Assembly: GCA_030596605.1 (NCBI GenBank)
Contig: JAUVJI010000002.1
Location: 2,904 to 66,903 of the forward strand
Origin: Bacteroidales bacterium
Lineage (GTDB): Bacteria; Bacteroidota; Bacteroidia; Bacteroidales; JAADJA01
Length of the DNA stretch: 64,000 nt
Reading direction: 5' to 3'
Made by a program: the position numbers and the translations under genes. Below the pieces are notes generated by a model. That model was not told the DNA's origin. It ran no database searches and saw only the letters and a program-made list of their open reading frames with translations. Every line of letters begins with the position of its first letter. Position 1 is the stretch's first letter. This document shows, piece by piece, positions 7,788 to 61,380 of the stretch.

Positions 7788-7798
7788 AATCTGTAATT

Positions 7799-10700
7799 AT
7801 GAAAACGAAATTTATAATAATCATTTCGGCGCTTTTCATAATTACCTGGCCGGTTTTGCTGCAAAGTCAAACGATAGTAACCACAGCCGGGTCACCATCA
7901 GAGTGTCCCGGGGAAATTGTGGTTCCTATTACAGTGACCAATTGCAACGGGGTCGGAGCCATTTCACTTGTCTTTCAACACGATACCGGGATCCTGACTT
8001 ATATGAACTATGAGAATGTTCATGCAGATTTATCCACAGGACTCCTTATCGTTAATCAGACCGGTGATAAAGTGATCATAAGCTGGGCTTCGACTACTGC
8101 TGCCAATATCGGAAGCGGAACCCTGATGGACATCCGTTTTTCAGGGGTTACCGGAAACAGCAGTTTAACGTGGGACACACAAACACCAGGTAATTGTGAA
8201 TATAGCGATTCAAACGGAAATATTCTTCCGTCTTCTTATACCAACGGCACGGCTACGATTTATCAAGTGCCGGAGGTACTTGATCATCCAGATGATGTTA
8301 CGGCCCTTGTGAACGATGATGTAAGCTTTAGCGTAAATGCCCTAAGCACAGGTATCAGCAGATTATGGTACAGGAGTACGGATGGAGGAACAAACTGGTT
8401 TTCAACCGGAGTAACCTCAGCAACATTGAATGTTTATGATGTAACATTGGACATGGATGGATATTTATACCGCTGCGAGATCAGTGGCACATGCAGTCCA
8501 ATAGCAATCTCTGATGAGGCAGAGTTAACGGTGATTCAACCGTTGATTACATCATTTGATGTGCAGGATGTTTGTCCGGGAAATATTACAATCCCAATCC
8601 TGACATCCAATTTTACGGATGTCGCTTCCCTGTCATTGGCATTTAGCTATAATACCTCAACTTTAACCTATTCGGGTTATCAGAATGTAAATTCCCTGTT
8701 GCCCGGAAACTTTGTATGTAATGAAGTGGGTGGAATGGTATATATGACATGGTCAACTACTTCACCTGTAACTTTTGGAACTGATACAACGCTAGTTGAA
8801 ATTCAATTTACAGGAGCAACCGGAAGCAGTAACCTGACATGGGACTTGACAACACCGGGAAATTGCGAATACACCTATTTGAATGCAGATCAAATTGTTT
8901 CTGTTTTCCAGGACAATTCGTTTACCATTTACCAGGTGCCGCAAATCAATGTTCAACCTGTTGATAAGCTGATCCCGGAAAATACCGGAACTAGCTTTAG
9001 TGTGTCAGCCGTAGCTTCAGGAATTAATTATCAATGGCAGATAAGTACTGATGATGGTGGAATTTGGACAGACATGATCAATGGTGGCCAATACAGTGGT
9101 GTGACATCAGCCACCCTTAACATTTCCAGTGCCTCGCTCTCAATGAGTGGTTATTGGTATCGTTGTATTGTAGGTGGGTATTGTTTACCTGATGCTATTT
9201 CTGATCCCGCCGAATTGATTGTCCTGCCAAGAATAACAGCAATTGCAGGAAATGTTTCTGATTGTCCGGGGACTATTACAGTACCTATTGATGTTACCCA
9301 TTTTATCAATGTTGCAGCCTTTTCCTTAACACTTAATTTTGATGAGGCCATATTAACCTTTGATAATTATCAATCGTTACATAGTAACCTATCAGGTGGA
9401 AGCTTTGCTTTAAATGCTGTTGATGGAAAAGTTTACATGACATGGACTTCAACCACGCCGGCTACCATCGGCGATGACCTTTTGATAGAATTGTTATTTA
9501 CCGGTATCACCGGAAGCAGTTCATTGAACTGGAATAATAGTGTTGAAGGAGCCTGTGAATTCAGCGACCTTGATGGAAATATCATTTTCGATAATTATAT
9601 AAATGGCAATGTCACTGTCTATCAACCTCCGATAATAACCGGTGATCCATCAAATCAAACGGCACCTGAAGGTACTGGAACAAGTTTTTCCGTTTCAGCA
9701 ACAGGAACGGGATTAAGTTACCAATGGCAGGAAAGTGACGATGATGGAAACAACTGGAATAATTTGTCGAACATCGCACCTTATTCAGGAGTAAATACTG
9801 CAACATTACAAATCAATCCAGTTGACCAAACAATGGATGCTTATCAATACAGGTGCAGGGTGTCAGGAACATGTCCGCCGCTGGTTTATTCAAGTTCTGC
9901 AATATTGAATGTGATACCTCCTGTTATTCATACTTCAGCTGGAGATATTTCAAATTCCTGTACAGGCAACATTACTGTACCTATAGGCGTGAGTAATTGT
10001 AATAATGTCGGGGCTATTTCTTTGGCTGTGAATTATGATAATACCAAACTGACTTATGAAGGTTATCAGTCACCAAACAGCGAATTAAGTGGAGGTATGT
10101 TAATTATAAATGCAACAGCAACACAGATTATACTCAGTTGGGCTTCGGTTAATCCGGCGGATATAGGTTTTGGAACTTTGATAGAATATAAATTTAAGGC
10201 CAATGCCGGAACTTCAACAACACTAATCTGGGATACACAGACACTTGGAAATTGCGAATACAGCGACCCTGACGGAAATATTTTTGCCATGGCATTTAAC
10301 ACCGGTGATATTTCTATCGCAGCCAATGCTTTGGTTGTAGATGCCGGAAGTGATGAAACAATAAGTCCGGGAGGGTCAGTCCAGTTAAATGGTTCGGCAA
10401 CAGGTGGTACTTTGCCTTATGGGATACAATGGACACCAACAAACTGGCTGACAGATCCAAATATTTTAGATCCTATAGCTGATCCACCAACTACAACCAC
10501 TTATACTTTAACAGTAATGGATAACCTGGGATGTTCAGGATCTGATGAAATGACGGTTAATGTGACTACAGCTGGAATTGACCTGGAATTGAAAGCTTTC
10601 CTGGAAGGTCCATTCAGCGGAACAACAATGGGAACAGAATTAAATAGCAATAATCTGATTCCACATAATCATCCTTACTCAGGGGCGCCATGGAATTATT

Positions 10701-11245
10701 CAGGATCGGAATATGTAACATGCATTCCAAATACTAATATTACTGACTGGGTAATGGTAGAATTAAGAGAGACAAGTGGCGGAGCTTCAACGGCAACCGG
10801 AGGAACAATGATCGTGCAGCAAGCAGGATTTATCCTGAATGATGGAAATATTGTGGATACAAATAGTACTAACATGATGCATTTTGATGTATTCATTACA
10901 CAAAATCTTTATGTTGTTATCTGGCATAGAAATCATCTGGCTATTATGTCATCCGGACCATTGACAAATGTGGGGGCAACATATTCCTGGGACTTTACAA
11001 CAGGTTCAGGACAGGCTCATGGAACAGATGCCCAGAAAATCCTTGGAGGAGTTTACGGCATGTATGCCGGAGATGGTGATGCCAATGGTACTGTTGAAAC
11101 AGCTGATAAAAGTGCAGTTTGGGGCTCACAGGTTGGAATGAAAGGTTATTACTCAGGTGATTTTGATATGAACGGCCAGGTGATGAACCAGGATAAAAAT
11201 GATGTTTGGTTAGGTAACTTTAATGAACAAACACAGATACCATAA
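7799..11245 (+). CDS. Scaffoldin-like secreted protein: 4 x (cohesin-like + Ig-like) modules, SprB/PKD-like segment, C-terminal LEGPF/HRNHL module with dockerin-like loops; no T9SS CTD
   Basis: Signal peptide MKTKFIIIISALFIITWPVLLQSQ. There are four ~230-aa repeats. Each has a CPG.I.VPI.V......AISL.F.YD...LTY...W.....G..TL block (cohesin-like). Each also has a YQWQ.S.DGG..W......YSGV.SATL.I......GY.YRC block (Ig-like). The C-terminus ends ...NEQTQIP. Confidence 0.85.
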   Translation: MKTKFIIIISALFIITWPVLLQSQTIVTTAGSPSECPGEIVVPITVTNCNGVGAISLVFQHDTGILTYMNYENVHADLSTGLLIVNQTGDKVIISWASTTAANIGSGTLMDIRFSGVTGNSSLTWDTQTPGNCEYSDSNGNILPSSYTNGTATIYQVPEVLDHPDDVTALVNDDVSFSVNALSTGISRLWYRSTDGGTNWFSTGVTSATLNVYDVTLDMDGYLYRCEISGTCSPIAISDEAELTVIQPLITSFDVQDVCPGNITIPILTSNFTDVASLSLAFSYNTSTLTYSGYQNVNSLLPGNFVCNEVGGMVYMTWSTTSPVTFGTDTTLVEIQFTGATGSSNLTWDLTTPGNCEYTYLNADQIVSVFQDNSFTIYQVPQINVQPVDKLIPENTGTSFSVSAVASGINYQWQISTDDGGIWTDMINGGQYSGVTSATLNISSASLSMSGYWYRCIVGGYCLPDAISDPAELIVLPRITAIAGNVSDCPGTITVPIDVTHFINVAAFSLTLNFDEAILTFDNYQSLHSNLSGGSFALNAVDGKVYMTWTSTTPATIGDDLLIELLFTGITGSSSLNWNNSVEGACEFSDLDGNIIFDNYINGNVTVYQPPIITGDPSNQTAPEGTGTSFSVSATGTGLSYQWQESDDDGNNWNNLSNIAPYSGVNTATLQINPVDQTMDAYQYRCRVSGTCPPLVYSSSAILNVIPPVIHTSAGDISNSCTGNITVPIGVSNCNNVGAISLAVNYDNTKLTYEGYQSPNSELSGGMLIINATATQIILSWASVNPADIGFGTLIEYKFKANAGTSTTLIWDTQTLGNCEYSDPDGNIFAMAFNTGDISIAANALVVDAGSDETISPGGSVQLNGSATGGTLPYGIQWTPTNWLTDPNILDPIADPPTTTTYTLTVMDNLGCSGSDEMTVNVTTAGIDLELKAFLEGPFSGTTMGTELNSNNLIPHNHPYSGAPWNYSGSEYVTCIPNTNITDWVMVELRETSGGASTATGGTMIVQQAGFILNDGNIVDTNSTNMMHFDVFITQNLYVVIWHRNHLAIMSSGPLTNVGATYSWDFTTGSGQAHGTDAQKILGGVYGMYAGDGDANGTVETADKSAVWGSQVGMKGYYSGDFDMNGQVMNQDKNDVWLGNFNEQTQIP
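7871..10325 (+). repeat. Four tandem ~690-nt coding repeats (cohesin-like + Ig-like module)
   Basis: Module boundaries are marked by ...IYQVPE (about 8263), ...IYQVPQ (about 8935), ...VYQPP (about 9625) and ...ISIAAN (about 10325). Confidence 0.8.
10577..11242 (+). other. LEGPF/HRNHL module copy A (domain I could not match to a named family, with two dockerin/EF-hand-like loops)
   Basis: IDLELKAFLEGPF...DWVMVELRETSGGAS...HRNHLAIMS...GDGDANGTVETAD...GDFDMNGQVMNQDKND...QIP. Confidence 0.8.
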
Positions 11246-11748: not shown

Positions 11749-14529
11749 ATGAAAACAAAATTATTCATCCCGAAAGCTTTCGGGATCAAATCAATCATCT
11801 TCGGTGTCCTGTTTTTTGGGTTATTATTAAGCCACAGTGCAAATGCCCAGCCCAACCTATGGGGAATGACTTCCTTTGATTATTCGGGTCATTATGGCGT
11901 AATATACTGCTATAACGCAAGTACGGACATTTATACCGTAAAACATTTTTTCGACGAAACAGACGGTGGTCAACCAAGCTATGGATTAATACAGGCTTCT
12001 GACGGGCTGTTATATGGAGTGACAGATTTAGGAGGTGATAATGATGCAGGTGTAATCTTTAAAATTGACCCGGCTAACGGTAATTTTACCAAAATTCACG
12101 ATTTTTATTGGTGGACTGGTACATGGCCTTCAGGTACCTTATTGCAGGCTTCTGACGGGCTGTTATATGGAATGACGAATGGAGGAGGGGACAATGGCTA
12201 TGGTGTTATCTATAAAATCGACCCAAATAATAATGATTTTACCAAAATACATGATTTTAATGGAATGGATGGGGGTTATACAATGGGAGGCTTAATGCAG
12301 GCTTCTAACGGGCTATTATATGGAATGACGTATGAAGGAGGGGACGATGACTGTGGTGTTATCTTTAAAATTGACCCAACTAATAATGATTTTACCAAAA
12401 TACACGATTTTGATTGGACAGACGGAATATGGCCAATAAACAATCTAATACAAGCTTCAAACGGGTTGCTATATGGAATGACATATGATGGTAATTATTA
12501 TGGAGTTATTTTTAAAATTGACCCGGCTGACGATACTTTCACAAAAACATACGATTTTAATTCGGAGGGCAGAAGTCCGTGTGGTGGTTTATTTGAGGCT
12601 TCTGACGGGCTGCTATATGGAATGACGTATGAAGGAGGAGACAATGACTGTGGTGTTCTCTTTAAATATGAACCGCTTAACGATACTTACACCAAAATTG
12701 CCGATTTTAACGGAACAAACGGGGCTAATCCATACAGCACTTTAATGCAGGCTTCCGATGGACTTTTATATGGCTACACAACTGATGGAGGCTCTACCAG
12801 TGATGGCAATATATTTAAATATGACATCACCACCGGGATTCTGACAGGTATTTATGATTTTGACGGAACAAACGGAAATGATCCTTTTTTTGGTAGTTTG
12901 GTAGAGGTAAGTACAAGTGTCACTGTAAGCTGCACTACTCCTGTAACTCCGTTAAATGCAACAACCGGTATAAGTGTTAACACCTCTCTGGAATGGAATA
13001 GCGTACCGGAGGCTGATGCATACCTGTTATACTTCGGAACTGATAATCCGCCAACAAACATTGAAGATGAATTGGATGTGGGAAATGTTACATCATACAC
13101 TCCATGTATAGCATTGGGTTATGACCAAACATATTATTGGCAGGTTATACCTTATAATTCAACCAACACGGCTTTAGGATGTGATATTTGGTCGTTTACA
13201 ACAGAAGACAACAGGATTGATCTTGACCTTACAGTTTATCTCGAAGGGCCATACGATGGCACCGATATGGATACGGATCTTAATCCCGAACTCATCCCTT
13301 TATCCCAACCTTATAACGATCCTTTGAAATGGGATTACCAGGGAATGGAAATTGTTGATAGTATTCCGAATGTGAATGTGGTTGACTGGGTGTTGATAGA
13401 ATTAAGGGAAACCACTGGGGATGCATCAACTGCCCGGCCCGGCACTATGATTGCAAGGCAAGCTGCTTTCCTGTTGAATGATGGGTCTGTTGTTGGTTTG
13501 GATGGTACAGACAACGCATGCGTTGTCTCGTCCCCCATTACCAACAATCTGTTCGTTGTAATCTATCACCGCAACCACCTCGAAATAATGTCAGCCAATC
13601 CATTATCCGAATCAGGAGGGGTTTATACTTACGATTTTACAACACCTGAAGGACAGGCTTATGGAACAGATGCACAGAAAAACCTCGGTGGAAATTACGG
13701 GATGTATGCCGGAGATGGTGATGCCAATGATACTGTTGAAATCGCAGATATAAACAACACCTGGAATTTGCAGGCTGGGAAGAATGGTTACTATTCCGGT
13801 GATTTTGATATGGACAGTGAGGTTAATAATATTGACAAAAATGATGTTTGGTTAAATAATATTGGTATGGCTTGCCAGATGCCGGTTGAAATCCCTGTTA
13901 TTTGTGGTGATCCGTTCACAGATTACCGAGACGGGCAAAGTTATAACACAGTACAAATAGGCACACAATGCTGGATGTCCGAATACCTGAACATTGGTAC
14001 TATGGTAAACGGCAACTGCAACCAAAGCAATAACAGCACTATTGAAAAATACTGTTATGGCAACAACACAAGCAATTGTGATACCTATGGCGGCCTGTAC
14101 CAATGGAATGAGATAATGCAATATGTCACAACACCAGCTGTACAAGGTATTTGCCCTGCCGGCTGGCATTTACCGACTGATGATGAATGGAAAACTATGG
14201 AAATGCATCTCGGTATGACACAAGCCCAGGCTGATGCGACAGGTTGGCGAGGTACTGATGAAGGGGGCAAGCTCAAAGAATTTGGTACAGATCATTGGAC
14301 TTCACCCAATACAGGGGCAACAAATTCGAGTGGTTTCACAGCCTTACCGACTGGTCACCGTAACATCAACGGAAATTTCTGGAATCTCACGAATAACGGC
14401 CAATGTTGGTCATCAAGCGAGAACGGTTATGCCGCATGGAACAGATACCTGGAACATGTTAGCGCACAGGTGTGGCGGAGCGCCAACAACAAGATGGACG
14501 CCTTCGGGGTACGTTGTGTGCTGGATTGA
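11749..14529 (+). CDS. Secreted protein: GloVer-type (Gloeo_Verruco-like) repeat propeller, FN3-like domain, LEGPY/HRNHL module, C-terminal FISUMP (Fibrobacter succinogenes major paralogous) domain
   Basis: Signal peptide ...LLLSHSANAQ. About six to seven ~51-aa repeats read QASDGLLYGMT..GG..G.GVIFKIDP....FTKIHDF. The LEGPY...HRNHLEIMS...GDGDANDTVEIAD...GDFDMDSEVNNID module spans 13216-13896. The C-terminal CGDPFTDYRDGQSYNTVQIGTQCWM...CPAGWHLPTDDEW...GVRCVLD matches the FISUMP signature. Confidence 0.85.
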   Translation: MKTKLFIPKAFGIKSIIFGVLFFGLLLSHSANAQPNLWGMTSFDYSGHYGVIYCYNASTDIYTVKHFFDETDGGQPSYGLIQASDGLLYGVTDLGGDNDAGVIFKIDPANGNFTKIHDFYWWTGTWPSGTLLQASDGLLYGMTNGGGDNGYGVIYKIDPNNNDFTKIHDFNGMDGGYTMGGLMQASNGLLYGMTYEGGDDDCGVIFKIDPTNNDFTKIHDFDWTDGIWPINNLIQASNGLLYGMTYDGNYYGVIFKIDPADDTFTKTYDFNSEGRSPCGGLFEASDGLLYGMTYEGGDNDCGVLFKYEPLNDTYTKIADFNGTNGANPYSTLMQASDGLLYGYTTDGGSTSDGNIFKYDITTGILTGIYDFDGTNGNDPFFGSLVEVSTSVTVSCTTPVTPLNATTGISVNTSLEWNSVPEADAYLLYFGTDNPPTNIEDELDVGNVTSYTPCIALGYDQTYYWQVIPYNSTNTALGCDIWSFTTEDNRIDLDLTVYLEGPYDGTDMDTDLNPELIPLSQPYNDPLKWDYQGMEIVDSIPNVNVVDWVLIELRETTGDASTARPGTMIARQAAFLLNDGSVVGLDGTDNACVVSSPITNNLFVVIYHRNHLEIMSANPLSESGGVYTYDFTTPEGQAYGTDAQKNLGGNYGMYAGDGDANDTVEIADINNTWNLQAGKNGYYSGDFDMDSEVNNIDKNDVWLNNIGMACQMPVEIPVICGDPFTDYRDGQSYNTVQIGTQCWMSEYLNIGTMVNGNCNQSNNSTIEKYCYGNNTSNCDTYGGLYQWNEIMQYVTTPAVQGICPAGWHLPTDDEWKTMEMHLGMTQAQADATGWRGTDEGGKLKEFGTDHWTSPNTGATNSSGFTALPTGHRNINGNFWNLTNNGQCWSSSENGYAAWNRYLEHVSAQVWRSANNKMDAFGVRCVLD
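11950..12900 (+). repeat. Tandem ~153-nt coding repeats (GloVer-type blades)
   Basis: CAGGCTTCTGACGGGCTGTTATATGG-like cores start at 11992, 12145, 12298, 12451, 12595 and 12748. Spacing is 153 nt, with one step of 144. Confidence 0.85.
13216..13896 (+). other. LEGPF/HRNHL module copy B (internal, followed by the FISUMP domain)
   Basis: IDLDLTVYLEGPY...DWVLIELRETTGDAS...HRNHLEIMS...GDGDANDTVEIAD...GDFDMDSEVNNIDKND...EIP. Confidence 0.8.
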
Positions 14530-14581: not shown

Positions 14582-17095
14582 ATGAAAAATCTCATTCTAA
14601 TTAACTTTTTAGTTTTGTTTCTAATTACTTTTTTAACAGGCCAGGTTATTTCTGATTTTGAAATTGAAGATGATACTGAAAATTGGCATTCCGAAGGTGA
14701 TGGCAATTATGGTTGGGAATCAGGCACAGGAAACCCTGGTGGATGTTTTCGTGTAAATGATTATGCCACAGGAGATATGAACCGTGCTTATGCGCCGGTG
14801 AAATTTCTTGGTGACTGGTCATCCGCCACAACAAGTGATTCTATTTCCGCTGACATTTTTCTACATGACATGGGCGGAGGGTATGTAAATCCTAATTTTG
14901 TATTCAGGATTGTTGGCCCGGGAGGTTCTGCTATTGCTATATATGATCCTATACCTACGCCACCACATGATACCTGGATCACCTATTCTGTAAACCTAAT
15001 TGAAAATGATTGGTTTGTTGAATACGGCACATGGGCTGATATTCTTCAACATGTTAGCACATTTATCGTTACAATGGAATATATCAGTGGTGATGAATAT
15101 AATTTGTTAGACAATGTAACTCTTTCTTTTACGCCCATTGCAGTTCCCATTACTCCTGTTCTGTGTTCAGATTTTGAAAGCGGCTTATTTGAAGGATGGT
15201 CGGTAAATGATGCCGGGAGTGCTTCAATAGCAAGCACCGGTGGTAACCCTGGGAAATATCTTAAAATTAATGATGGCACCGGGAATTCAATAGCTGTGCC
15301 TTCATCTATCTATCACGGTGACTGGTCATTACTTGACGGCCATAATGCAGAGATCCATATAGACTATCTGATTACAGATATTAACGGGCCAACCTATTTA
15401 CATGATTTTTTTGTGAAAATTGCAGGTCCGGGGGGCGAAGCAACATATCCCATTGATAACAATATTGAGTTGGCTTTTAACAAATGGCATTCATTTGGTA
15501 TTCCAATTGAGCAAGCAGGCTGGATAATTTTAAGTGGCGATTGGAATTCGTTGATGGATTTTGTGGACGACATCCAAATTGTTGCCGAATTTATCTCTGG
15601 GGATGAAACCGTCGGGATTGATAATTTTTGCATTTCCAATTTACCGCCTTCAACGGAATTTATGGCTGAAAAGATATTTGTCTATTTGGGTGAAACAGTG
15701 CAGTTTTTCGATCAAACAACATCAGCACCGCAAACCTGGAATTGGGATTTTGGCGATTCCGGATCGAGCACAGAAGTTAATCCTTCTCATCAGTACCTTG
15801 CCCCGGGATTATATACAGTATCTTTAACTACAACCAACTACTTCGGTAATAGCACTGAAACAAAAACAGGATACATTGAAGTATATCCGGTTGATCAGTG
15901 TTTAAAGTTTGAAGATGATTTTGACGATAATATTATTCATCAAGCCTGGTCTTTTAAAAATGGGACTTGGAACGAAACATCCGGATTGATGAGGCAATCT
16001 TCAAATCATTATGTATCTGGTAATTACTTGGAAGGCTGTTTTGCTATTACAGGCAGTTTATTGTGGAACGATTATATTGTTTCCTGTGATTTCCGGTCAA
16101 CTGACAATGATATAATTGGTTTTGTTTTTAACTACCAGGATGAACAAAACATGTATATGTTCAGATGGAGGTTGAATCCTTTATACAGATCACTGTTTAA
16201 ATATGAAAACGGAGTTGAAACAGAACTTGCAACTGATAATGTCGGATATATTGAAAACGACTGGTACCATGCTGACATATACTCTTTAGACGGTAATATC
16301 GTGCTTGCTATTAATGGGGTGGAAATTTTTAGTGTTTTTGATGATACATTTACAAATGGGAAAGTTGGGTTGTATTGCTTTGGTAACCAATCCAGTTATT
16401 ATGATAATTTCAAGGTGGAATGTCCGGGGACACCTGTTGAGCTTAAAGTATTTTTAGAAGGGCCTTTTACAGGGTCTGAAATGACCACCGGCTTAAATGA
16501 CCAGAATATTCTTGCATTAAACAATCCCTATCCTAACGCTCCCTGGAATCATACCGGAACAGAAGGAGTGCTTTCATTTTCCAATCCGGATGTAACTGAC
16601 TGGGTGCTGGTAGATTTCAGGGATACTACATCGGCAAGTGCGGCACTACCCGCCTCTTCTATTGGAACCAAAGCAGCGTTGTTATTAAAAAACGGTCAAG
16701 TTATTTCACCTTATGGAGGATTGCCATTGTATCTTAATGCCACCATTAATAATAATCTTTATATTGTTATTCAGCACAGGAACCATTTGGGAATCTTGTC
16801 AGCAAATCCGGTAACAGAAGCCGGCGGAATGTATTCGTATGACTTTACAAACGGATCAGGACAGGCTTATGGAACAAATGCACAGAAAAATCTCGGTGGA
16901 ATTTATGGAATGTATGCCGGAGATGGTGATGCCAATGGAACTATTGAAGTGTCCGATATAAACAACATCTGGGGTTCACAGGTTGGAAAGATAGGATACT
17001 GGTCTGGTGATTTTGATATGAACGGGCAAGTGATGAATCAGGATAAAAATGATGTGTGGTTTTTGAATATAAACGAACAAACACAGATACCATAA
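14582..17095 (+). CDS. Secreted protein: two ~170-aa N-terminal repeats, PKD domain, LamG/concanavalin-like (DUF1080-like) domain, C-terminal LEGPF/HRNHL module; no T9SS CTD
   Basis: Signal peptide MKNLILINFLVLFLITFLTGQ. PKD signature WNWDFGDSGSSTEVNPSHQYLAPGLYTVSLT. A LamG-like block reads FEDDFDD...GFVFNYQDEQNMYMFRW...GKVGLYCF. The C-terminal module spans 16436-17092 and ends ...NEQTQIP. Confidence 0.85.
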   Translation: MKNLILINFLVLFLITFLTGQVISDFEIEDDTENWHSEGDGNYGWESGTGNPGGCFRVNDYATGDMNRAYAPVKFLGDWSSATTSDSISADIFLHDMGGGYVNPNFVFRIVGPGGSAIAIYDPIPTPPHDTWITYSVNLIENDWFVEYGTWADILQHVSTFIVTMEYISGDEYNLLDNVTLSFTPIAVPITPVLCSDFESGLFEGWSVNDAGSASIASTGGNPGKYLKINDGTGNSIAVPSSIYHGDWSLLDGHNAEIHIDYLITDINGPTYLHDFFVKIAGPGGEATYPIDNNIELAFNKWHSFGIPIEQAGWIILSGDWNSLMDFVDDIQIVAEFISGDETVGIDNFCISNLPPSTEFMAEKIFVYLGETVQFFDQTTSAPQTWNWDFGDSGSSTEVNPSHQYLAPGLYTVSLTTTNYFGNSTETKTGYIEVYPVDQCLKFEDDFDDNIIHQAWSFKNGTWNETSGLMRQSSNHYVSGNYLEGCFAITGSLLWNDYIVSCDFRSTDNDIIGFVFNYQDEQNMYMFRWRLNPLYRSLFKYENGVETELATDNVGYIENDWYHADIYSLDGNIVLAINGVEIFSVFDDTFTNGKVGLYCFGNQSSYYDNFKVECPGTPVELKVFLEGPFTGSEMTTGLNDQNILALNNPYPNAPWNHTGTEGVLSFSNPDVTDWVLVDFRDTTSASAALPASSIGTKAALLLKNGQVISPYGGLPLYLNATINNNLYIVIQHRNHLGILSANPVTEAGGMYSYDFTNGSGQAYGTNAQKNLGGIYGMYAGDGDANGTIEVSDINNIWGSQVGKIGYWSGDFDMNGQVMNQDKNDVWFLNINEQTQIP
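16436..17092 (+). other. LEGPF/HRNHL module copy C
   Basis: VELKVFLEGPF...DWVLVDFRDTTSAS...HRNHLGILS...GDGDANGTIEVSD...GDFDMNGQVMNQDKND...QIP. Confidence 0.8.
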
Positions 17096-17575: not shown

Positions 17576-18448
17576 ATGGGAAAAGCAAATAATATTTCCG
17601 GAAAGCTGGCTTCTTTACGCGAAAGATATTTTAAATATGCTTTTAAAAAAGCTTCATTATTAAATATTTTAAGCGAAGCAGAGGTATCAGAGCAGGTATA
17701 CAATTCCAATGCAATTGAAAACAGTACCTTAACATTTGATGAAACTCAAAAGATTTTACAGCAGATAGATTTGGACAGATTTATTTCGGAAAGAGAGTTG
17801 TTCGAAACTAAAAACCTGTCTCGTGTAATTGGCTATCTAAATTCCAAAGCAAAAGAAAAGGAACTGGACATAGAAATGACCTTATTGCTCCATAAAATGC
17901 TGATGTCGAACATCAATGATAAAATTGCCGGAAGATTCAGGAACGACACAGAATGGGTCAGGGTGGGCAATCATATTGCTGTTGATCCAAAACAGGTTTA
18001 TGACAGTATGGAAGAAATGCTTATAAAATATTATTCAACAGCCCATCTCAGTATTGTGAAAAGAATTGTCTTTTTACATTTAACATTTGAGCACATTCAT
18101 CCCTTTGTGGATGGCAATGGCCGAATTGGCAGGGTGATAAACAATTACTTTTTGATCCGTGAGGGTTATGTTCCCATTAACATTAAGTTTATCGACCGGG
18201 CGTTGTATTATGATGCATTCAGCGAATTTGACAGTAGTGGTAATACTACTATTATGGAAGATATCGTTGGAAAAGCCCTTACTAACAGTTACCATAAAAG
18301 GCTGGCTTACCTTGAAGAAAAACAAATTATAAGTTTAATTGAATATGCCAGATTAAAAAACACCTCTCACTCCAACATTATAAATAAAGCCAAAAGGCAA
18401 AGCATTGAGGCATTTACTGAAAAAGGCGTATGGAAAATTGGGGCTTAG
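17576..18448 (+). CDS. Fic family protein (AMPylase-type), with N-terminal inhibitory-helix-like motif
   Basis: Fic active-site motif HPFVDGNGRIGR fits HxFx(D/E)GNGRxxR. N-terminal SNAIEN fits the (S/T)xxxE(G/N) auto-inhibition motif. The C-terminal ~45 aa may form a small HTH-like tail. Confidence 0.85.
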   Translation: MGKANNISGKLASLRERYFKYAFKKASLLNILSEAEVSEQVYNSNAIENSTLTFDETQKILQQIDLDRFISERELFETKNLSRVIGYLNSKAKEKELDIEMTLLLHKMLMSNINDKIAGRFRNDTEWVRVGNHIAVDPKQVYDSMEEMLIKYYSTAHLSIVKRIVFLHLTFEHIHPFVDGNGRIGRVINNYFLIREGYVPINIKFIDRALYYDAFSEFDSSGNTTIMEDIVGKALTNSYHKRLAYLEEKQIISLIEYARLKNTSHSNIINKAKRQSIEAFTEKGVWKIGA

Positions 18449-18631: not shown

Positions 18632-20509
18632 CTATTCCACAATCATCTTCTTTGTAATAGCAGCCTCACCAGCTTTTACTGTGTAGAAATAAATACCAGG
18701 TGTGAGTTTGGTTCCATCTATGATTATTTTATTCATCCCGGGCTGAGCAATTCCTGCATCAGCAGAATATACCATTTGTCCCATCATGTTTACAACTTCC
18801 AGTGTTAAAGGAGTTGTATGCCTCACATTCACTTTTACCGTTGAATTTTCTGTGAATGGATTAGGGTAGTTTTGCAATACATCATAATCAAATATAGCTG
18901 TATTGTCTTCATCCCCTACCCATACTTCAAGAATATCAGCTTTCATAAACCTGATGAAGTTTTCACCGTACGGATCTTCGTCACCCCTTACAGCAAGGCC
19001 GGGCTCAGTATCCGTTTGGTAAATCAGGTAATAATAGTCATCTGAGGTTGAAGCTATACTTGGGAATACACACTCATCAAAAATATGAATAAGATCGGAT
19101 GTCAAATCTGTAAAAGGGCCCCAGAAATCTCCGTACCCTGAAAAACGGCTCCACATATGACGGTAACTTTGTGTACCATTGTCATATGTTTCAGTTACAG
19201 AGGTGAAAACAATATAAATATTGTCATCTTCAGTAATTGTAATTTGAGGCATGCTTGAAAATCCGAGATAATATGTTCCCCAGTCATCCAAAACATCAAT
19301 GGTTCCATTGTTGTTAATATCCTGGGTCCAGCCAATCAAGCTGTAATCTTCCACAAGTTCAGAGTAAGAGCAATTATCATACAGAGGACAAAGGGCATCC
19401 ATGTCATTTGAAAAAGTGGGCCTGTTCTCATTCCAGTATCCTATACCACCTACACCCGGAAACCAAAAGGAGCCTGTGCCATCAGAATAAGACCTGTTAA
19501 TACCAAAAACAACATGTATCATACCCTCGCTGTCGTAAGCAAGGTGATGTGAGCCATCCACGCAATAGAATGTATCGGTGGGTGTTGGCTGGGCAGGATT
19601 GAACATCGGATATGGGTTCTCCCAGATCACTGTTTTCTCCCAGGTATCTCCCCCATCATCTGATTTCATCAAAATAAAATCGATCCATGAGTCACCCACC
19701 AAAAATGCAATGTTATCATCATCTGTTGCAGCCCATTCATACATATCGGCGCTAAAACCAACATAGTCGGCAGAAGAGAGCCCATCCAAAATAGCATGCT
19801 CGGGATCCCAGGTTGTTCCGCCATCTGTTGATCTTGAATATAACACTGCTCCATCCAGACCTTGATATATCGGTCCGCCATTGGCCTCCGGCCATGTAAT
19901 ACATAATGTTTGGATTACATTATTGTTAATCCCAGAAGTGGTTGACCTGTTCCAAGATATGGGTGTTGCGGCAGGTCCTTCAAAAACATCTTCTGACCAG
20001 GTTCCTGTTCCTTTTTCCTCTCTGATGAGATAAATAAGCTCTCCGGCACCAAAATCATGAGAAACGACAAGTTCACCATTTTCTCCATAAGGAGCATAAG
20101 AAGGCCATCCGGTTCTTAAGCTTTCAATTCTTTCCGTTGGCCAAGGTCCCCAGGTATTTCCGTCATAATAATTGTAACCTGTACCCCTGTCACCGGCAAA
20201 ATTTGGAAAATCCAAACCAAAAGTCCAGACACCGGCCATGGTTCCATCGGGATAAACATGAAAACGGTTCTGGTTACCAGTGTTGGATTGCAGGTCGTAA
20301 AAAGTATTACCGATGATCTCTTCCTCAGGTGTAAAATCTGCCTTATAAGAAGGAATAATCGGTGATTTGCTAAAATCTGACGGTGATTTAGAATGACGGG
20401 CTTTTCTAATGGAATAATCCCTTAGTTCCTTAGAAACAGTTGCCCGGTTTTGTGAAAATCCTGAGATGGCTATTCCCAGAATTAAAACGAAAAGTAATAG
20501 ATTTTTCAT
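18632..20509 (-). CDS. Asp-box (BNR) beta-propeller protein with T9SS CTD, paralog P1
   Basis: Signal peptide MKNLLLFVLILGIAISGFSQ. Asp-boxes YSRSTDGGTTW and MKSDDGGDTW. Conserved EF-hand-like loop DINNNGTIDVLDD. CTD YPNPFTENSTV...GIYFYTVKAGEAAITKKMIVE. Confidence 0.85.
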   Translation of the reverse strand: MKNLLLFVLILGIAISGFSQNRATVSKELRDYSIRKARHSKSPSDFSKSPIIPSYKADFTPEEEIIGNTFYDLQSNTGNQNRFHVYPDGTMAGVWTFGLDFPNFAGDRGTGYNYYDGNTWGPWPTERIESLRTGWPSYAPYGENGELVVSHDFGAGELIYLIREEKGTGTWSEDVFEGPAATPISWNRSTTSGINNNVIQTLCITWPEANGGPIYQGLDGAVLYSRSTDGGTTWDPEHAILDGLSSADYVGFSADMYEWAATDDDNIAFLVGDSWIDFILMKSDDGGDTWEKTVIWENPYPMFNPAQPTPTDTFYCVDGSHHLAYDSEGMIHVVFGINRSYSDGTGSFWFPGVGGIGYWNENRPTFSNDMDALCPLYDNCSYSELVEDYSLIGWTQDINNNGTIDVLDDWGTYYLGFSSMPQITITEDDNIYIVFTSVTETYDNGTQSYRHMWSRFSGYGDFWGPFTDLTSDLIHIFDECVFPSIASTSDDYYYLIYQTDTEPGLAVRGDEDPYGENFIRFMKADILEVWVGDEDNTAIFDYDVLQNYPNPFTENSTVKVNVRHTTPLTLEVVNMMGQMVYSADAGIAQPGMNKIIIDGTKLTPGIYFYTVKAGEAAITKKMIVE

Positions 20510-20610
20510 AGTACTGATTTTTAATTATTTAATTATTAATTTATAAATCATTAAATGTTTGTTGCAAGTTTAACGATAAAGATAGCCAAAATTATAAAAA
20601 ATCCTGAAAT

Positions 20611-20646
20611 AAACCAGCTAACGGTAAAATCAAATCAGTTAACGGT
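20611..20646 (-). promoter_or_regulatory. Candidate LytTR-type operator upstream of P1 (two 15-mers, 21-bp register)
   Basis: Gene-strand sequence: ACCGTTAACTGATTT (exact, 20632-20646), then ACCGTTAGCTGGTTT (20611-20625). Lies 102-137 nt upstream of the start codon. Confidence 0.6.
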
Positions 20647-20720
20647 AAAAAAGTCCACCTTCGCTAAAGCTTCGGAGGACAAGTAAAGTTAAAAGTATAA
20701 ATGTTAATTGGAAATTCAGC

Positions 20721-22583
20721 TTATTCCACTATCATCTTCCTGGTAACAGCAGCCTCACCCGCCTTCACCGTATAGAAATACAATCCCGGATTAAGTCCTT
20801 CCACATCAATTGTAATATTGTGAACTCCTGCCTGAAGATACCCTTCTTTAATTCCCAAAACTTTCTGGCCGGTAAGGTTGATAATTTCAAGGGAAATATT
20901 ACAAGATTCTGTTAATTCGATTTGCACTAAAGTTTCGTCACTAAACGGATTTGGAACATTCTGGCTTACTTTAAGATTTTTAACAGGTTCCATATTTTTT
21001 GCAATTCCTGTAATTACATCCACTGCCATAAAACTGATAAAATTTTCAAAAAATGGATCATTATCTCCTCTCACTGCCATTCCAGGTTCGGGATCATATT
21101 GAAATGTTAAATAATAGTTGAGCCAGCCATCGGAATAGGTTGCCAGGGATGGGAATACATTTTCATGCATACAATGACATAAATCGTTGGTTAAATGCAA
21201 AAATGAACTCCAGGTATAACCATCTAATGAATAACGGCCCCAAAGGTGCCGGTAGTTTTGTATACCATTATCATATGTTTCCGTAACGGATGAGTATACC
21301 ACAAATATCCTGTTCATATCATCAACAACAATCTGTGGCATACTTGAGAAACCAAGATAATAAGTACCCCAGTCATCCAGAAATTCAAGTTGTCCGTTTC
21401 CGTTAATATCCTGTGTCCAACCTATTAAACTATAATCTTCCTCAAGCTCAGAATCAGGATGGCCATAAGGACTTAAAGCATTCAAATTATTTGAGAAAGA
21501 AGGCCTGTTTTCATTCCAGTATCCTATTCCCCCAACGGCCGGAAACCAGTAAGTTCCTGCTCCGTCGCAAACAGTCCTGTTAATACCAAACACAACGTGA
21601 ACAATTCCTTCATCATTGAAATCCAAACTATGGGCGCCATCAGCACAATAGAAAGTATCAGTCGGGAACATATTATTGAAATTCCACATTGGATAGGGGT
21701 GCTCCCAAATTATTGTCTTTTCCCAGGTATTCCCGCTATCTGTTGATTTTAATAATAACAAATCAATCCATGGTGAGCCAATTAAAATGCCGACAATGTC
21801 ACCTTCGGCTTTAATGTCATAAGTATCCCCATCAAATCCAACATAATGGGTGTTATCAATCTCAGGGAAAACATAATTCTCAGGATTCCATGTACTTCCT
21901 CCATCCATAGACCTTGAATACAAAATGGCCGATATTTGCCCTTGATAGGGATTATATGGTTTTGTAACTGCCAACAAATGGATAACTGAATTATTCACAC
22001 CTCCGGTTGCCATCCTTGGAAATATAATATCCTCAAACAATTGGGGGCCAGTAAAATTCCACTCTTCCCAATCGCCCACACCCTTGTTGATCCTTTTATT
22101 AAACAAAAGACCATCAATATCAGCCCCGGACAGGTGAGATACAATAAGTTCTCCGTTTTCACCCAAGGGAGCATATGAAGCCCAGCCCGAACGCTGGCTT
22201 TCAATCCTCTCTGTTGGCCAGAGCTGCCATGCAGTTCCATCAAAATAGTTGTATCCGGTTCCCCTGTCATCCATAAAATTAGGATAATCATAACCCATTG
22301 TCCACACAGTTCCTATTGTGCCATCATCAAAAACATGAATCCTTTGTTGTGTGCTGTAATTGGTCTGCAGGTCGTAATATGTTGTTCCAATATCTTCTTC
22401 AAAATAACAGCTGCTTTTATAGGGAGCTTGTATATTGTGATTTTCCCGGGTTTGGTTATAAGATTCATCTACCTTAACTCCATAATCCTGCAATTCTTTT
22501 GAGATTTTTACCCTTTGCTGGGAAAAGCCGATTGTACAGATTAGTATTAATGTGAAAGTGATAACAATACTTTTCATGATCAA
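20721..22583 (-). CDS. Asp-box (BNR) beta-propeller protein with T9SS CTD, paralog P2
   Basis: Collinear with P1 and P3-P6. Asp-boxes YSRSMDGGSTW and LKSTDSGNTW. CTD VPNPFSDETLV...GLYFYTVKAGEAAVTRKMIVE. The start could be the second ATG at 22577. Confidence 0.85.
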   Translation of the reverse strand: MIMKSIVITFTLILICTIGFSQQRVKISKELQDYGVKVDESYNQTRENHNIQAPYKSSCYFEEDIGTTYYDLQTNYSTQQRIHVFDDGTIGTVWTMGYDYPNFMDDRGTGYNYFDGTAWQLWPTERIESQRSGWASYAPLGENGELIVSHLSGADIDGLLFNKRINKGVGDWEEWNFTGPQLFEDIIFPRMATGGVNNSVIHLLAVTKPYNPYQGQISAILYSRSMDGGSTWNPENYVFPEIDNTHYVGFDGDTYDIKAEGDIVGILIGSPWIDLLLLKSTDSGNTWEKTIIWEHPYPMWNFNNMFPTDTFYCADGAHSLDFNDEGIVHVVFGINRTVCDGAGTYWFPAVGGIGYWNENRPSFSNNLNALSPYGHPDSELEEDYSLIGWTQDINGNGQLEFLDDWGTYYLGFSSMPQIVVDDMNRIFVVYSSVTETYDNGIQNYRHLWGRYSLDGYTWSSFLHLTNDLCHCMHENVFPSLATYSDGWLNYYLTFQYDPEPGMAVRGDNDPFFENFISFMAVDVITGIAKNMEPVKNLKVSQNVPNPFSDETLVQIELTESCNISLEIINLTGQKVLGIKEGYLQAGVHNITIDVEGLNPGLYFYTVKAGEAAVTRKMIVE

Positions 22584-22620
22584 TTTTTTAGGAAATGTTT
22601 ATAAAAATAAAAACAGGTTT

Positions 22621-22628
22621 CAAATATA
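22621..22628 (-). promoter_or_regulatory. Bacteroidota -7 box-like element (TATATTTG) upstream of P2
   Basis: The gene-strand sequence TATATTTGAAACCTGTTTTTATTTTTATAAA is shared almost verbatim with the P3 upstream region. It matches the TAnnTTTG consensus and lies ~40 nt upstream of the ATG. Confidence 0.45.
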
Positions 22629-22721
22629 ATCATTTGATATGTTATATGCAAGAATGATATTCTAAGATATTGGACTGTAGGCGTATGAAGTTAAAATTTA
22701 ACTTTATACCCAATTGCAAAT

Positions 22722-24581: not shown

Positions 24582-24617
24582 TTTATTAGGTAATTTTTAT
24601 AAAAATAAAACAGGTTT

Positions 24618-24625
24618 CAAATATA
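24618..24625 (-). promoter_or_regulatory. Bacteroidota -7 box-like element (TATATTTG) upstream of P3
   Basis: Gene-strand TATATTTGAAACCTGTTTTATTTTTATAAA lies ~40 nt upstream of the ATG at 24581 and is a duplicate of the P2 upstream block. Confidence 0.45.
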
Positions 24626-24719
24626 GTCATTTGATATTGTAAATGCAAGAGTTAATCAGTTTGTGGTAAGTTACCCCCTCCCTTTCTCCCCCCCTGGAGG
24701 GGGAGGGTTGGGGTGGGGG

Positions 24720-26591: not shown

Positions 26592-26670
26592 GATCGTTTT
26601 TTTTAAGTTAGTAATATTTTTTTTAAGTGAATTCTCAAATATAAAAAGATTATATATTAAAGTCAAGGAT

Positions 26671-26706
26671 AAATCAGTTAACGGTGGGGAAAAGTAAGAA
26701 TTCGGT
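26671..26706 (-). promoter_or_regulatory. Candidate LytTR-type operator upstream of P4
   Basis: Gene-strand sequence: a degenerate ACCGAATTCTTACTT (26692-26706), then an exact ACCGTTAACTGATTT (26671-26685) 21 bp away. The proximal copy ends 27 nt before a TATATTTG -7-box-like element. Confidence 0.55.
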
Positions 26707-26772
26707 ATTTTTTTCAATTCTTAAAATTCTACTCTTCTGCTCTTTCGGATTTAAGGGAAGGCTAAGGTGTGG

Positions 26773-26878
26773 GATAATCCGAAAGCCTGTAACAGGGGAT
26801 TTTCCCGTAGGACCCGAGGGGATTCCTACGGGAGATGGCTATGCCAAGATTCCCCATTTAAATCCCGTCCGGATTATC
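26773..26878. repeat. ~105-nt multi-stem palindromic element between P5 and P4
   Basis: Outer stem GATAATCCG (26773-26781) / CGGATTATC (26870-26878). Middle stem GGGGATTT / AAATCCCG. Inner perfect 10-bp hairpin TCCCGTAGGA (26803-26812) / TCCTACGGGA (26824-26833). Confidence 0.55.
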
Positions 26879-26933
26879 ATCTTCACTGCCCATAGCATAA
26901 ATCCGGACAAGCTGTATAGCAGAAAAAATTTAC

Positions 26934-26966
26934 ATAAAAAAAAGACCGGTCAAATTGACCGGCCTC
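26934..26966 (-). terminator. Intrinsic terminator of P5
   Basis: The minus strand reads GGCCGGTCAATTTGACCGGTC followed by a T-run, about 30 nt after the P5 stop. Confidence 0.65.
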
Positions 26967-26991
26967 TTTTAGTATATAGTTTCGTAAAATA

Positions 26992-41910: not shown

Positions 41911-41931
41911 TATTATAAAAACAACATAAAG

Positions 41932-61374: not shown

Positions 61375-61380
61375 CAAAAA

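Follow-up and report, generated by a model that had tools for sequence, protein, structure and literature searches.

The 64-kb stretch of Bacteroidales DNA analysed here (hereafter the window) holds four copies of a module of ~220 aa, carried by four unrelated proteins (Table 1). A hidden Markov model (HMM) of the four copies, searched against the six-frame translation of the window, recovers exactly these four (E 1e-118 to 1e-122) and no further copy. Together with the ORFs, this bears out all four locations given in an earlier reading of the DNA made from its letters alone (the sequence-only reading), and the ORF coordinates agree with its statement that the module is C-terminal in three of the four carriers. 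The ending Q(I/V)P that it described is also present, in the window as Q(I/V/M)P; copy 3 closes with QIP directly before the stop codon, the final P is kept in 89% of 359 unique family members, and the tail of the family is a conserved N...QVP. In copy 2 the FISUMP domain does follow the module; of the QMPVEIP junction, the conserved module takes in QMP (to nt 13884), and VEIP is a linker. Pairwise identity among the four copies is 44–59% at the amino acid level, 53–65% at the nucleotide level and 37–50% at third codon positions, and these low values mark them as old paralogues, not recent duplications. A recent duplication or cassette exchange of the module was accordingly rejected, third positions being near saturation.

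Table 1. Features of the window that bear on the module, in order of position.
Feature	Position (nt)	Strand	Description
LytTR-domain protein (165 aa)	2064-2561	+	upstream of Wup gene
Wup (1738 aa)	2571-7787	+	putative cell-surface anchor
Wup dockerin, Pfam-type	6777-6953	+	Dockerin_1 23.0 bits against a cutoff of 22.9, scanned as a segment
Wup cohesin	7065-7502	+	hhalign against W1-type cohesin profile: probability 98.6%, E 8.7e-16
Wup T9SS type-A C-terminal sorting domain	7527-7781	+	Por_Secre_tail 45.9 bits
Scaffold W1 (1148 aa)	7799-11245	+	Sec signal peptide, four cohesins alternating with Ig-like domains, PKD-like, module copy 1
W1 cohesin 1	7862-8278	+	
W1 cohesins 2, 3, 4	8534-8947, 9230-9637, 9926-10333	+	
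Module copy 1	10577-11242	+	C-terminus of ORF 7799-11245 (four-cohesin scaffold W1)
Module copy 1, parts	X part 10577-11053; dockerin part 11054-11242	+	
Cargo W2	11749-14529	+	signal peptide, seven GloVer repeats, module, FISUMP (13951-14520)
Module copy 2	13216-13896	+	internal in ORF 11749-14529 (W2), then FISUMP domain
Module copy 2, parts	X part 13216-13695; dockerin part 13696-13884	+	then VEIP linker
Cargo W3	14582-17095	+	signal peptide, two jelly-roll-like regions, PKD, LamG-like domain, module
Module copy 3	16436-17092	+	C-terminus of ORF 14582-17095 (W3)
Module copy 3, parts	X part 16436-16903; dockerin part 16904-17092	+	X part a predicted beta-sandwich
Module copy 3, predicted calcium loops	16922-16957; 17009-17044	+	DGDANGTIEVSD; DFDMNGQVMNQD
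Module copy 4	62797-63462	-	C-terminus of EEP/nuclease-like ORF that continues past the window end on its N-terminal side
Module copy 4, parts	X part 62986-63462; dockerin part 62800-62985	-	

Two of the four carrier architectures named in the sequence-only reading are clear, and the other two each include a weak call. Scaffold W1, its cohesin/Ig carrier, matches Pfam Cohesin in four stretches (72.1 bits) and Ig_3 (48 bits), and no T9SS C-terminal sorting domain (CTD) was found in it; the same architecture is repeated in P0120, L001, L002, L003 and L040. The GloVer carrier, W2, matches TIGR03803 in seven stretches (322 bits), with FISUMP at 133–137 bits past the module. For W3, read as a PKD and LamG protein, PKD is recovered (53 bits), whereas matches to a LamG-like domain are weak (3keto-disac_hyd at 22.2 bits, under its cutoff, and TSP_C at 31 bits). 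The EEP assignment of the carrier of copy 4 likewise finds matches, but weak ones (Exo_endo_phos E 8.8e-4; MnuA nuclease E 8.6e-5).

The gene that ends 11 nt before that of scaffold W1 encodes Wup, whose domains are, in order, a Kelch propeller, beta-helix repeats, a CarboxypepD_reg-like domain, a dockerin, a cohesin and a T9SS type-A CTD. Homologues of Wup carry PF00404 as well. Pfam Cohesin does not detect the cohesin in this copy; the region gives an AF2 model with a pLDDT of 89.8, for which Foldseek returns the cohesins 2w1n (E 1.4e-9) and 5nrm_A (TM 0.75), the cohesin-FN3 structure 2w1n being the best fold match of the C-terminal region of Wup, and the proteins that occupy its place in L054 and L020 match Pfam Cohesin at 63.9 and 47.3 bits. 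The cohesins of scaffold and anchor, proposed below as receptors, are thus recognised by the PF00963 model or by fold. The gene order is conserved: in 1.33 Mb of module-centred loci, all eight Doc-Coh-CTD proteins (8/8) are encoded directly upstream of a protein with cohesins and module, on the same strand and with a gap of at most 52 nt, and L083 is a ninth case, for a total of nine independent loci. In L080 the row consists of two anchors, COHx2-PKD-CTD, COH+module, COHx4+module and M28 peptidase+module; W1-type cohesins sit on a CTD protein there. A homologue search with one scaffold cohesin gave at least six matches. By a tally of the listed domains, the loci hold 130 module ORFs and some 35 cohesin domains, a proportion resembling that of cellulosomes, and conventional Pfam dockerins are scarce in them.

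The module family comprises ~16,000 clusters at 50% identity and is almost confined to uncultured Bacteroidales, with many copies per genome; no description of the module or its operon was found in the literature. Of 242 proteins, 193 have at most 5 residues between the module and the C-terminus and 21 have it internally, and among internal-module proteins FISUMP follows it in 15 of 19. Tandem arrays of two, three and five copies occur, P0094 and P0095 being composed of tandem modules only (two to five), and P0098 has the module N-terminal in a protein with a true T9SS CTD. Tandem, internal (before FISUMP) and N-terminal placement is the behaviour of a binding module. Abundant proteins of ~298 aa consist of a signal peptide, a conserved 45-aa segment and the module, and nothing else. 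Sec-type N-termini are present in 123 of 199 carriers; a lipobox-like motif occurs in just 5 of the 123, and a lipoprotein anchor for the carriers was therefore rejected.

Pfam-A and NCBIfam give zero matches on the module even at E ≤ 10, whether whole proteins, isolated modules or the C-terminal 63 aa are searched, and Pfam Dockerin_1 (PF00404) matches 0/4 window copies at that threshold and 0/47 sampled relatives. The C-terminal part nonetheless has the signature of a dockerin, namely two EF-hand-like calcium loops with acidic or amide residues at positions 1, 3, 5 and 12 and a helix after each; the window copies have the DxDxNG...D loops of Table 1 and their equivalents. Across the 359 unique copies the canonical loop positions are 88–100% conserved (D165 in 97%, N/D167, D/N169 and D176 in 100% for loop 1; D194 in 100%, N/D196, D/N198 and D205 in 99% for loop 2), and a K...W after each loop gives the region an internal two-fold symmetry. 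The divergent member P0095 does pass Dockerin_1, with 33.2 bits (cutoff 22.9) over precisely the C-terminal part of its module 2. Searched against PDB sequences, a 62-sequence family profile gave weak, sub-threshold matches, 11 of 15 of them dockerins aligned over both loops, and the 4-copy profile gave noise and one weak dockerin match; neither profile matched the X regions of PDB X-dockerins (XDocs). The hhalign comparison with Wup's own dockerin was weak (probability 23%), and module or X part showed no relationship to the CarboxypepD_reg-like and dockerin region of Wup, so the module is not simply a copy of Wup's Doc unit.

AF2 models the module as a single compact unit (pLDDT 96.8, pTM 0.93), with a beta-sandwich of ~155 aa followed by two calcium loops with helices 172–182 and 201–211. 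Type-II X-dockerin dyads from the cellulosomes of clostridia take all of the first eight places among the Foldseek matches in the PDB: 4u3s_B, 2b59_B, 5g5d_B, 4wi0_B, 5m0y_B and three chains from 4fl4, a ternary complex. Their probabilities are 0.60–1.0 and their target-normalised TM scores 0.50–0.56 on isolated XDoc chains of ~156 residues, with modest E values (6e-3 to 0.1) and query-normalised TM scores of just 0.37–0.41. These dyads are the sole high-probability fold matches; the matches beyond them, which include a carbohydrate-binding module and prealbumin-like domains, have very low probabilities. T9SS CTD structures are absent from the top 50 matches, and a fold search of BFVD found no viral relatives. 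In the predicted structure, a beta-sandwich lies directly N-terminal to the dockerin and is packed against it as one unit, as in X-dockerins. Structure prediction, suggested with the original observation, thus points to an X-dockerin-like fold. The view that the module belongs to no named family holds in that Pfam and NCBIfam are silent, but dockerins are a known superfamily, to which its C-terminal third belongs, and the full module resembles X-Doc dyads, and for these reasons the fold is not new.

The module is probably an X-dockerin-type docking tag of a cohesin–dockerin surface assembly that is coupled to T9SS. Such a tag would have two parts: a sandwich of ~155 residues (the X part), which would be the positional equivalent of the cellulosomal X module, rigidly fused to a dockerin of ~65 residues with two EF-hand-like calcium loops, each with its helix. 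Tagged proteins exported by Sec would bind cohesins non-covalently and in a calcium-dependent manner, the candidate cohesins being the four on the adjacent scaffold W1, which is itself tagged, and/or that of Wup, just before the T9SS sorting domain. Wup would be exported and fixed at the cell surface by T9SS, and the outcome would be a layered assembly of anchor, scaffold and cargo displaying adhesin-like proteins, peptidases, a nuclease-like enzyme and glycosidases. The portable attachment role that the sequence-only reading gave the module gains from both the X-Doc prediction and the conserved gene cluster that combines it with cohesin scaffolds and with a cohesin protein that T9SS would anchor. 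Neither cargo nor scaffold has any signal known to take proteins across the outer membrane, which leaves one step of an extracellular assembly unexplained. One rather improbable solution is that the cohesin–dockerin pairing acts as a secretion adaptor, by which tagged CTD-less proteins ride T9SS as a folded complex ('piggyback'). The X-Doc tag would then bind, already in the periplasm, the cohesin of the CTD-bearing anchor, directly or via the CTD-less scaffold, and one sorting domain would serve dozens of cargo proteins. Piggyback export would explain the mutual exclusivity of tag and CTD, the missing outer-membrane export signal and the constant adjacency of anchor and scaffold.

Cohesin–dockerin assembly is usually linked above all with cellulolytic Firmicutes, which are Gram-positive. 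Examples of type-II XDocs are those of C. thermocellum CipA, with the CohII of SdbA/ScaC (2b59, 5g5d, 4fl4), and of A. cellulolyticus ScaA, with the ScaB cohesin (4u3s, 4wi0). Like the clostridial X-dockerins, the module is predicted to be a beta-sandwich fused rigidly to a two-loop, two-helix dockerin; as in CipA, it forms the C-terminal end of a scaffold with several cohesins; and as in clostridial cellulosomes, a cohesin beside a cell-surface anchoring device (here a putative one) is encoded alongside. Unlike the X modules of those proteins (~100 aa), its sandwich is ~50 residues longer, has no detectable sequence homology to them and is far more conserved, and the module is not restricted to scaffolds: each genome has it on dozens of cargo proteins, for which it would be the common tag. 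The host also differs, a diderm member of the Bacteroidales in which anchoring would use a T9SS CTD and not SLH or sortase, as does the cargo, which is mostly non-CAZyme (adhesin-like repeats, peptidases, nuclease-like enzyme). With PF00404 the module shares a duplicated ~22-residue D-x-[DN]-x-[DN]-G-x-[IV]-x-x-x-D loop plus helix; it departs from that model in the K...W after each loop and the conserved tail, and the window copies go undetected by it. A comparable system, with a scaffoldin that bears cohesin and a T9SS CTD and with dockerin-tagged enzymes, among them a C25 peptidase, has been inferred from Cloacimonadota MAGs ('Ca. Stygibacter'; PMC8542988). Both systems belong to FCB-group diderms and are known from genomes alone. 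In 'Ca. Stygibacter', standard domain models recognise the dockerins and cohesins and the CTD is on the scaffoldin itself, whereas here the putative X-Doc tag is unannotated, the scaffold with its several cohesins has no CTD, and the part of anchor would fall to another, giant protein of the Doc-Coh-CTD type. Non-cellulosomal cohesin–dockerin pairs have been surveyed (Peer et al., 2009, as cited in PMC6487960 and PMC8542988). Like the GH84 toxin complexes of Clostridium perfringens (2w1n), the assembly proposed here would bring together non-cellulolytic secreted proteins by cohesin and dockerin, but organism, envelope type and tag family differ, and the X-Doc dyad is not a general tag there.

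The sequence-only reading had also considered that the module might replace the T9SS CTD as a secretion or sorting signal, and several observations agree with this. The module takes the same C-terminal slot in the same genomes and ends in the conserved Q-V-P, homologous passenger families bear either module or CTD, and the passengers are typical T9SS cargo (Peptidase_C25 with propeptide, M28, PKD, LamG, beta-helix). Both occur on the same protein in 0/92 cases (precomputed), 0/47 by Pfam, and 1/242 and 0/130 by HMM, against 45 CTD ORFs in the module loci; the exclusivity towards type-A/B CTDs that was to be checked is therefore near-complete. GloVer, moreover, is a 'choice-of-anchor' repeat, and the carriers have Sec signals and no other known outer-membrane export signal. 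A new C-terminal export or sorting signal, of T9SS or another outer-membrane translocon, in which the dockerin-like part would be structural only, is nevertheless unlikely. PF18962, PF13585, TIGR04183 and TIGR04131 give zero matches on the modules, whereas the same models find nine CTDs elsewhere in the window. T9SS CTDs (TIGR04183/PF18962; TIGR04131/PF13585) hold an obligate single C-terminal position and form a compact Ig-like beta-sandwich of ~70–100 aa; the module, at 220 aa two to three times their size, has two helices in its last ~65 aa and tolerates internal, tandem (x2–x5) and N-terminal positions, the last in a protein with its own CTD. On these grounds, and with no CTD among the top 50 folds, a divergent T9SS CTD was rejected. 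The search of carrier neighbourhoods for a PorP/SprF-like partner or another conserved non-cohesin family found none.

The X part has near-invariant polar and aromatic residues (E8, D55, W56, R62, H114, R115, N116, H117), and its motifs LEGP, DWVLVELR and HRNHL are conserved far above what is usual for X modules, which hints at a function outside the docking model. This exceeds what a passive X module leads one to expect and would suit a sandwich that is a calcium-dependent lectin, anchoring the module to a non-protein ligand (LPS, a capsular or S-layer glycan, or a substrate glycan) while the cohesins serve classical dockerins. The anchors' own Pfam-type dockerin pairs 1:1 with the cohesin in the same chain, so the cohesins have another possible ligand, and the carbohydrate-binding module among the fold matches points, at its very low probability, the same way. 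We consider glycan anchoring doubtful, since only X-Doc dyads are matched at high probability, modules are abundant and Pfam dockerins scarce, and scaffolds of two to four cohesins that end in the module and cluster with tagged cargo are hard to explain without a role for cohesins. Little credence at all can be given to homo- or heterotypic polymerisation of the module (e.g. by dockerin-to-X contacts) into fibres or lattices independent of cohesins: the proteins made of tandem modules alone and the abundant ~298-aa proteins speak for it, but tandem dockerin-type connectors fit cohesin binding equally, and the conserved linkage to cohesin genes would be left unexplained.

If the module is indeed a docking tag, a very large family of such tags has gone unseen by Pfam and NCBIfam, and cohesin–dockerin pairing would be a mainstream organiser of the surface proteome (adhesins, peptidases, nucleases and glycosidases, coupled to T9SS-anchored receptors) in uncultured Bacteroidales of sediments, digesters and the subsurface. 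Annotators would gain a new domain model to build and cellulosome engineers an orthogonal X-Doc/cohesin pair, and for the T9SS field the question would be how tagged CTD-less proteins cross the outer membrane.

The LytTR-domain protein encoded upstream of Wup is a possible regulator of the cluster, and homologous ORFs of ~163 aa hold its position in L001, L002 and L003. Apart from cohesin genes, the carriers have as recurrent neighbours only regulators (two-component, LytTR and sigma-54) and a repetitive, fibre-like protein.

A segment of ~220 residues recurs at four places in the window, as the sequence-only reading had it; the finding holds, and there is more structure to it than the sequence alone could show. 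The translations of the four copies align without difficulty (44–59% amino-acid identity, 64 invariant columns), and a four-copy profile searched against the six-frame translation of the window recovers exactly these places (E 1e-118 to 1e-122) and no fifth. The four different N-terminal architectures described for the carriers also hold, with the LamG-like and endonuclease/exonuclease/phosphatase matches being weak. DNA identity between the copies is 53–65%, and only 37–50% at third codon positions; because these values are so low, the copies are old paralogues, and a recently copied cassette is ruled out. In line with the sequence-only reading, which matched the module to no named family, no Pfam-A or NCBIfam model matches it even at E≤10.

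Positions of the features in the window and in other module-centred loci (L)
Feature	Sequence	Position	Strand	Description
LytTR protein	window	2064–2561	+	
LytTR protein	L001	1507–1992		
LytTR protein	L002	1515–2003		
LytTR protein	L003	1511–1999		
Anchor gene	window	2571–7787	+	1738-aa protein; directly upstream of scaffold, ends 11 nt before scaffold start
Module copy 1	window	10577–11242	+	translation, ~220 residues; carrier W1 (ORF 7799–11245), 1148 aa, four Pfam cohesins alternating with Ig-like domains
Module copy 2	window	13216–13896	+	translation, ~220 residues; carrier W2 (11749–14529), seven GloVer repeats, module then FISUMP domain
Module copy 3	window	16436–17092	+	translation, ~220 residues; carrier W3 (14582–17095), PKD protein, weak LamG-like region
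Fic/DOC-family protein	window	17576–18448	+	290 aa
Five tandem paralogues	window	18632–28875	-	~620–665 aa, each with terminal T9SS type-A sorting domain
SusC/SusD-like pair	window	38662–43557	+	SusC-like TonB-dependent receptor and SusD-like lipoprotein
T9SS-CTD protein	window	45140–46993		617 aa
TMEM260-like protein	window	58017–61076	-	1019 aa, TMEM260-like protein O-mannosyltransferase domain (262 bits)
tRNA-Gln	window	61304–61375	+	anticodon TTG; sole RNA gene detected in window
Module copy 4	window	62797–63462	-	translation, ~220 residues; carrier runs off window, weak endonuclease/exonuclease/phosphatase match
Split scaffold	L083 (GCA_041393275.1, JAWKKL010000029.1)	7699–11152		4-cohesin scaffold as ORFs of 181, 86, 225 and 383 aa
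Dense cluster	L080 (Logan SRR30503389)	1–21146		cluster, then >2000-aa protein with anchor-type dockerin

AlphaFold2, given an alignment of 62 relatives, models the module with very high confidence as a single unit (mean pLDDT 96.8, pTM 0.93) with a beta-sandwich at residues ~1–160 followed by helices at 172–182 and 201–211. A 12-residue EF-hand-type loop leads into each helix (DGDANGTIEVSD and DFDMNGQVMNQD in copy 3). The coordinating positions hardly vary among 359 unique family members, being D (97%), N/D, D/N and D (100%) in loop 1 and D (100%), N/D, D/N and D (99%) in loop 2, and both loops are followed by K, with W four residues on. The repetition of loop and K...W thus gives the module an internal two-fold repeat of the kind that characterises dockerins. 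The eight best Foldseek matches of the model in the PDB are X-dockerin dyads of type-II cohesin–dockerin complexes, from A. cellulolyticus ScaA (4u3s_B, 4wi0_B) and C. thermocellum CipA and CipB (2b59_B, 5g5d_B, 5m0y_B and three chains of 4fl4), with probability up to 1.0, E 6e-3 to 0.1 and a target-normalised TM of 0.50–0.56 on isolated ~156-residue XDoc chains; all matches ranked below them have low probability. The family profile finds 15 PDB sequences at E<10, 11 of which are dockerins aligned across both loops (best match 2vn5_B, E 0.048; the CipA XDoc 2b59_B, E 0.33). Pfam Dockerin_1 reaches 33.2 bits (cutoff 22.9) in P0095, a divergent member with five tandem modules, and the match falls exactly on the C-terminal part of the second one. 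The module is therefore read, on its predicted fold and these matches, as a beta-sandwich X part (~155 aa) joined to a dockerin part (~65 aa), or X-Doc. The sandwich, in a fold that is predicted and not solved, exceeds known X modules by ~50 residues, shows no detectable relationship to them in sequence and is unusually conserved at LEGP, PY..PWNY.G.E, DWVLVELR and HRNHL.

The family extends far beyond the window. A profile search of 1.84 billion cluster representatives returns 16,109 clusters at E≤1e-3, or 6,951 if the threshold is tightened to E≤1e-30, and at least 585 module loci occur in one-genome-per-species contigs. The hosts are almost all uncultured Bacteroidales MAGs (a few are labelled Chlorobiota or Lentimicrobiaceae), with up to ten loci from one MAG among the best 80 loci. 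The module lies ≤5 residues from the C-terminus in 193 of 242 module proteins, 6–25 residues from it in 28 and further inside in 21; FISUMP follows it in 15 of 19 internal cases scanned, the order also seen in the window. Its partners are very diverse (LamG, beta-helix, PKD, cohesin, Peptidase_C25 with propeptide, M28, GEVED, MAM, LTD and, in L083, GH57). Tandem modules are found in P0093 (three), P0094 (two) and P0095 (1313 aa), proteins built largely or wholly from them that could serve as multivalent connectors between cohesin-bearing proteins. Many stand-alone proteins of ~298 aa (P0097, P0022, P0024, P0037, P0048 and others) contain nothing beyond a signal peptide, a segment of ~45 residues that is conserved and has no Pfam match (S..GG....SLSWTLGEIATET.....ILTQGFQQP) and the module.

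Directly upstream of the scaffold W1 lies the gene of a putative cell-surface anchor (the anchor gene), whose giant product carries a Kelch propeller, beta-helix repeats and a C-terminal T9SS type-A sorting domain (CTD). Its C-terminal 400 residues contain a CarboxypepD_reg-like domain, then a Pfam-type dockerin (23.0 bits when scanned as a segment, cutoff 22.9) and a ~145-aa region on which Pfam is silent. This region is a cohesin: it matches the scaffold-type cohesins in profile–profile comparison (98.6% probability, E 8.7e-16), and its AlphaFold2 model (pLDDT 89.8) retrieves the cohesin structures 2w1n (E 1.4e-9), 5nrm_A (TM 0.75, rmsd 3.1), 2vn5 and 1g1k. In L054 and L020, the protein encoded at the corresponding position reaches 63.9 and 47.3 bits, respectively, with Pfam Cohesin, and PF00404, PF00963 and PF18962 are annotated together on more distant homologues (precomputed annotation). 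Nine other window proteins bear type-A CTDs, and therefore the organism uses T9SS.

The gene row of the window (LytTR protein, Doc-Coh-CTD giant, four-cohesin scaffold with module, two module-bearing cargo proteins) is conserved in part elsewhere. Each of the eight Doc-Coh-CTD proteins in the loci (window, L001, L002, L003, L040, L031, L054, L020) is encoded directly upstream of a protein with cohesins plus module, both genes lying on one strand and ≤52 nt apart. Of the eight downstream proteins, five bear four cohesins and three bear one or two together with Big_2. A ninth pair, in L083, has its scaffold in four ORFs, followed by GH57+module and a split M28/MAM+module protein. The anchor gene upstream of this scaffold is intact, and the split could come from frameshifts, a pseudogene or assembly errors. 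L080 is the richest example of the system seen. Its row has two giant proteins that hold additional internal cohesins and end in Doc-Coh-CTD, and a protein of 598 aa in which two scaffold-type cohesins are combined with PKD_6 and a CTD. It further encodes a cohesin+module protein (381 aa), a four-cohesin+module protein (810 aa) and one M28 peptidase+module protein; by analogy, the row follows the logic of a cellulosomal 'sca' cluster of anchor, scaffold and cargo. The LytTR-domain-only protein (~163 aa, without a receiver domain) is kept directly upstream of the anchor gene and may regulate the anchor–scaffold cluster.

The sequence-only reading had offered two roles for the module, a targeting or attachment device and a non-canonical signal replacing the T9SS CTD. 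The part of the second proposal that stands is positional: passenger families mix module- and CTD-bearing paralogues (9 and 8 in a cluster of 33), so that the module occupies the CTD slot, and co-occurrence with type-A/B CTDs, the check that the sequence-only reading proposed, is rare. PF18962 is absent from 92 close relatives (precomputed annotation), both PF18962 and PF13585 from 47 randomly chosen representatives with a C-terminal module, and no ORF in 1.33 Mb of loci has both module and CTD (130 unique module ORFs, 45 CTD ORFs); one of 242 module proteins does (P0098, with an N-terminal module and a C-terminal Por_Secre_tail). Against replacement as a signal, the module has no sequence or fold similarity to CTDs, and its size, helical C-terminus and internal, tandem and N-terminal copies do fit a binding module and not a C-terminal export signal, in line with the attachment-like role. 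The module is probably the docking tag of a cohesin–dockerin assembly. Tagged proteins would leave the cytoplasm by Sec; W1–W3 have classical signal peptides, and a heuristic scan finds signal-like N-termini in 123 of 199 module proteins and lipobox-like motifs in only five. Once exported, they would dock by X-Doc onto cohesins, with the scaffold multiplying the sites and a T9SS-delivered protein with a cohesin beside its CTD fixing the assembly to the cell surface. Within the anchor, the Pfam-type dockerin is matched 1:1 by an anchor-type cohesin of the same chain, and the two may pair between molecules; the scaffold-type cohesins would then be free for the module. By analogy with C. thermocellum, X-Doc could instead bind the anchor cohesin, and the anchor dockerin the scaffold. 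The CTD-less scaffold and cargo show no known signal for crossing the outer membrane; piggyback export through T9SS with a CTD-bearing cohesin protein would be the most novel route, at low probability.

In function and structure, a docking tag of this kind comes closest to the type-II X-dockerin dyads of clostridial cellulosomes and, at the system level, to the cellulosome-like arrangement inferred from Cloacimonadota MAGs, in which enzymes tagged with dockerins, a C25 peptidase among them, occur alongside a cohesin scaffoldin bearing a T9SS CTD (PMC8542988). Earlier work had already noted rumen Bacteroidetes dockerins, as well as non-cellulosomal cohesin/dockerin modules in general (PMC6487960, citing Peer et al., 2009). 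The proposed assembly differs from known systems in that the tag family is invisible to curated models, X-Doc tags cargo in general instead of anchoring scaffolds only, anchoring falls to a separate Doc-Coh-CTD protein, and the cargo is largely non-CAZyme. No description of the module or operon was found in the full-text literature; subscription journals lay outside the search, and an earlier description is possible. The family is large and unannotated and its proposed mechanism clear and testable, but the principle is not categorically new.

The rest of the window is ordinary Bacteroidota chromosome (SusC/SusD, LptF/G, sigma-54, tRNA synthetases, DprA). The Fic/DOC-family gene directly follows the last gene of the cluster that bears the module. 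The passenger regions of the five tandem paralogues have no confident Pfam assignment, with weak BNR/Asp-box signatures in one. A 458-aa ORF without a Pfam match and the 617-aa T9SS-CTD protein follow the SusC/SusD-like pair. Module copy 4 is 1.7 kb away from the TMEM260-like ORF, whose product could be relevant to the glycosylation of surface proteins.
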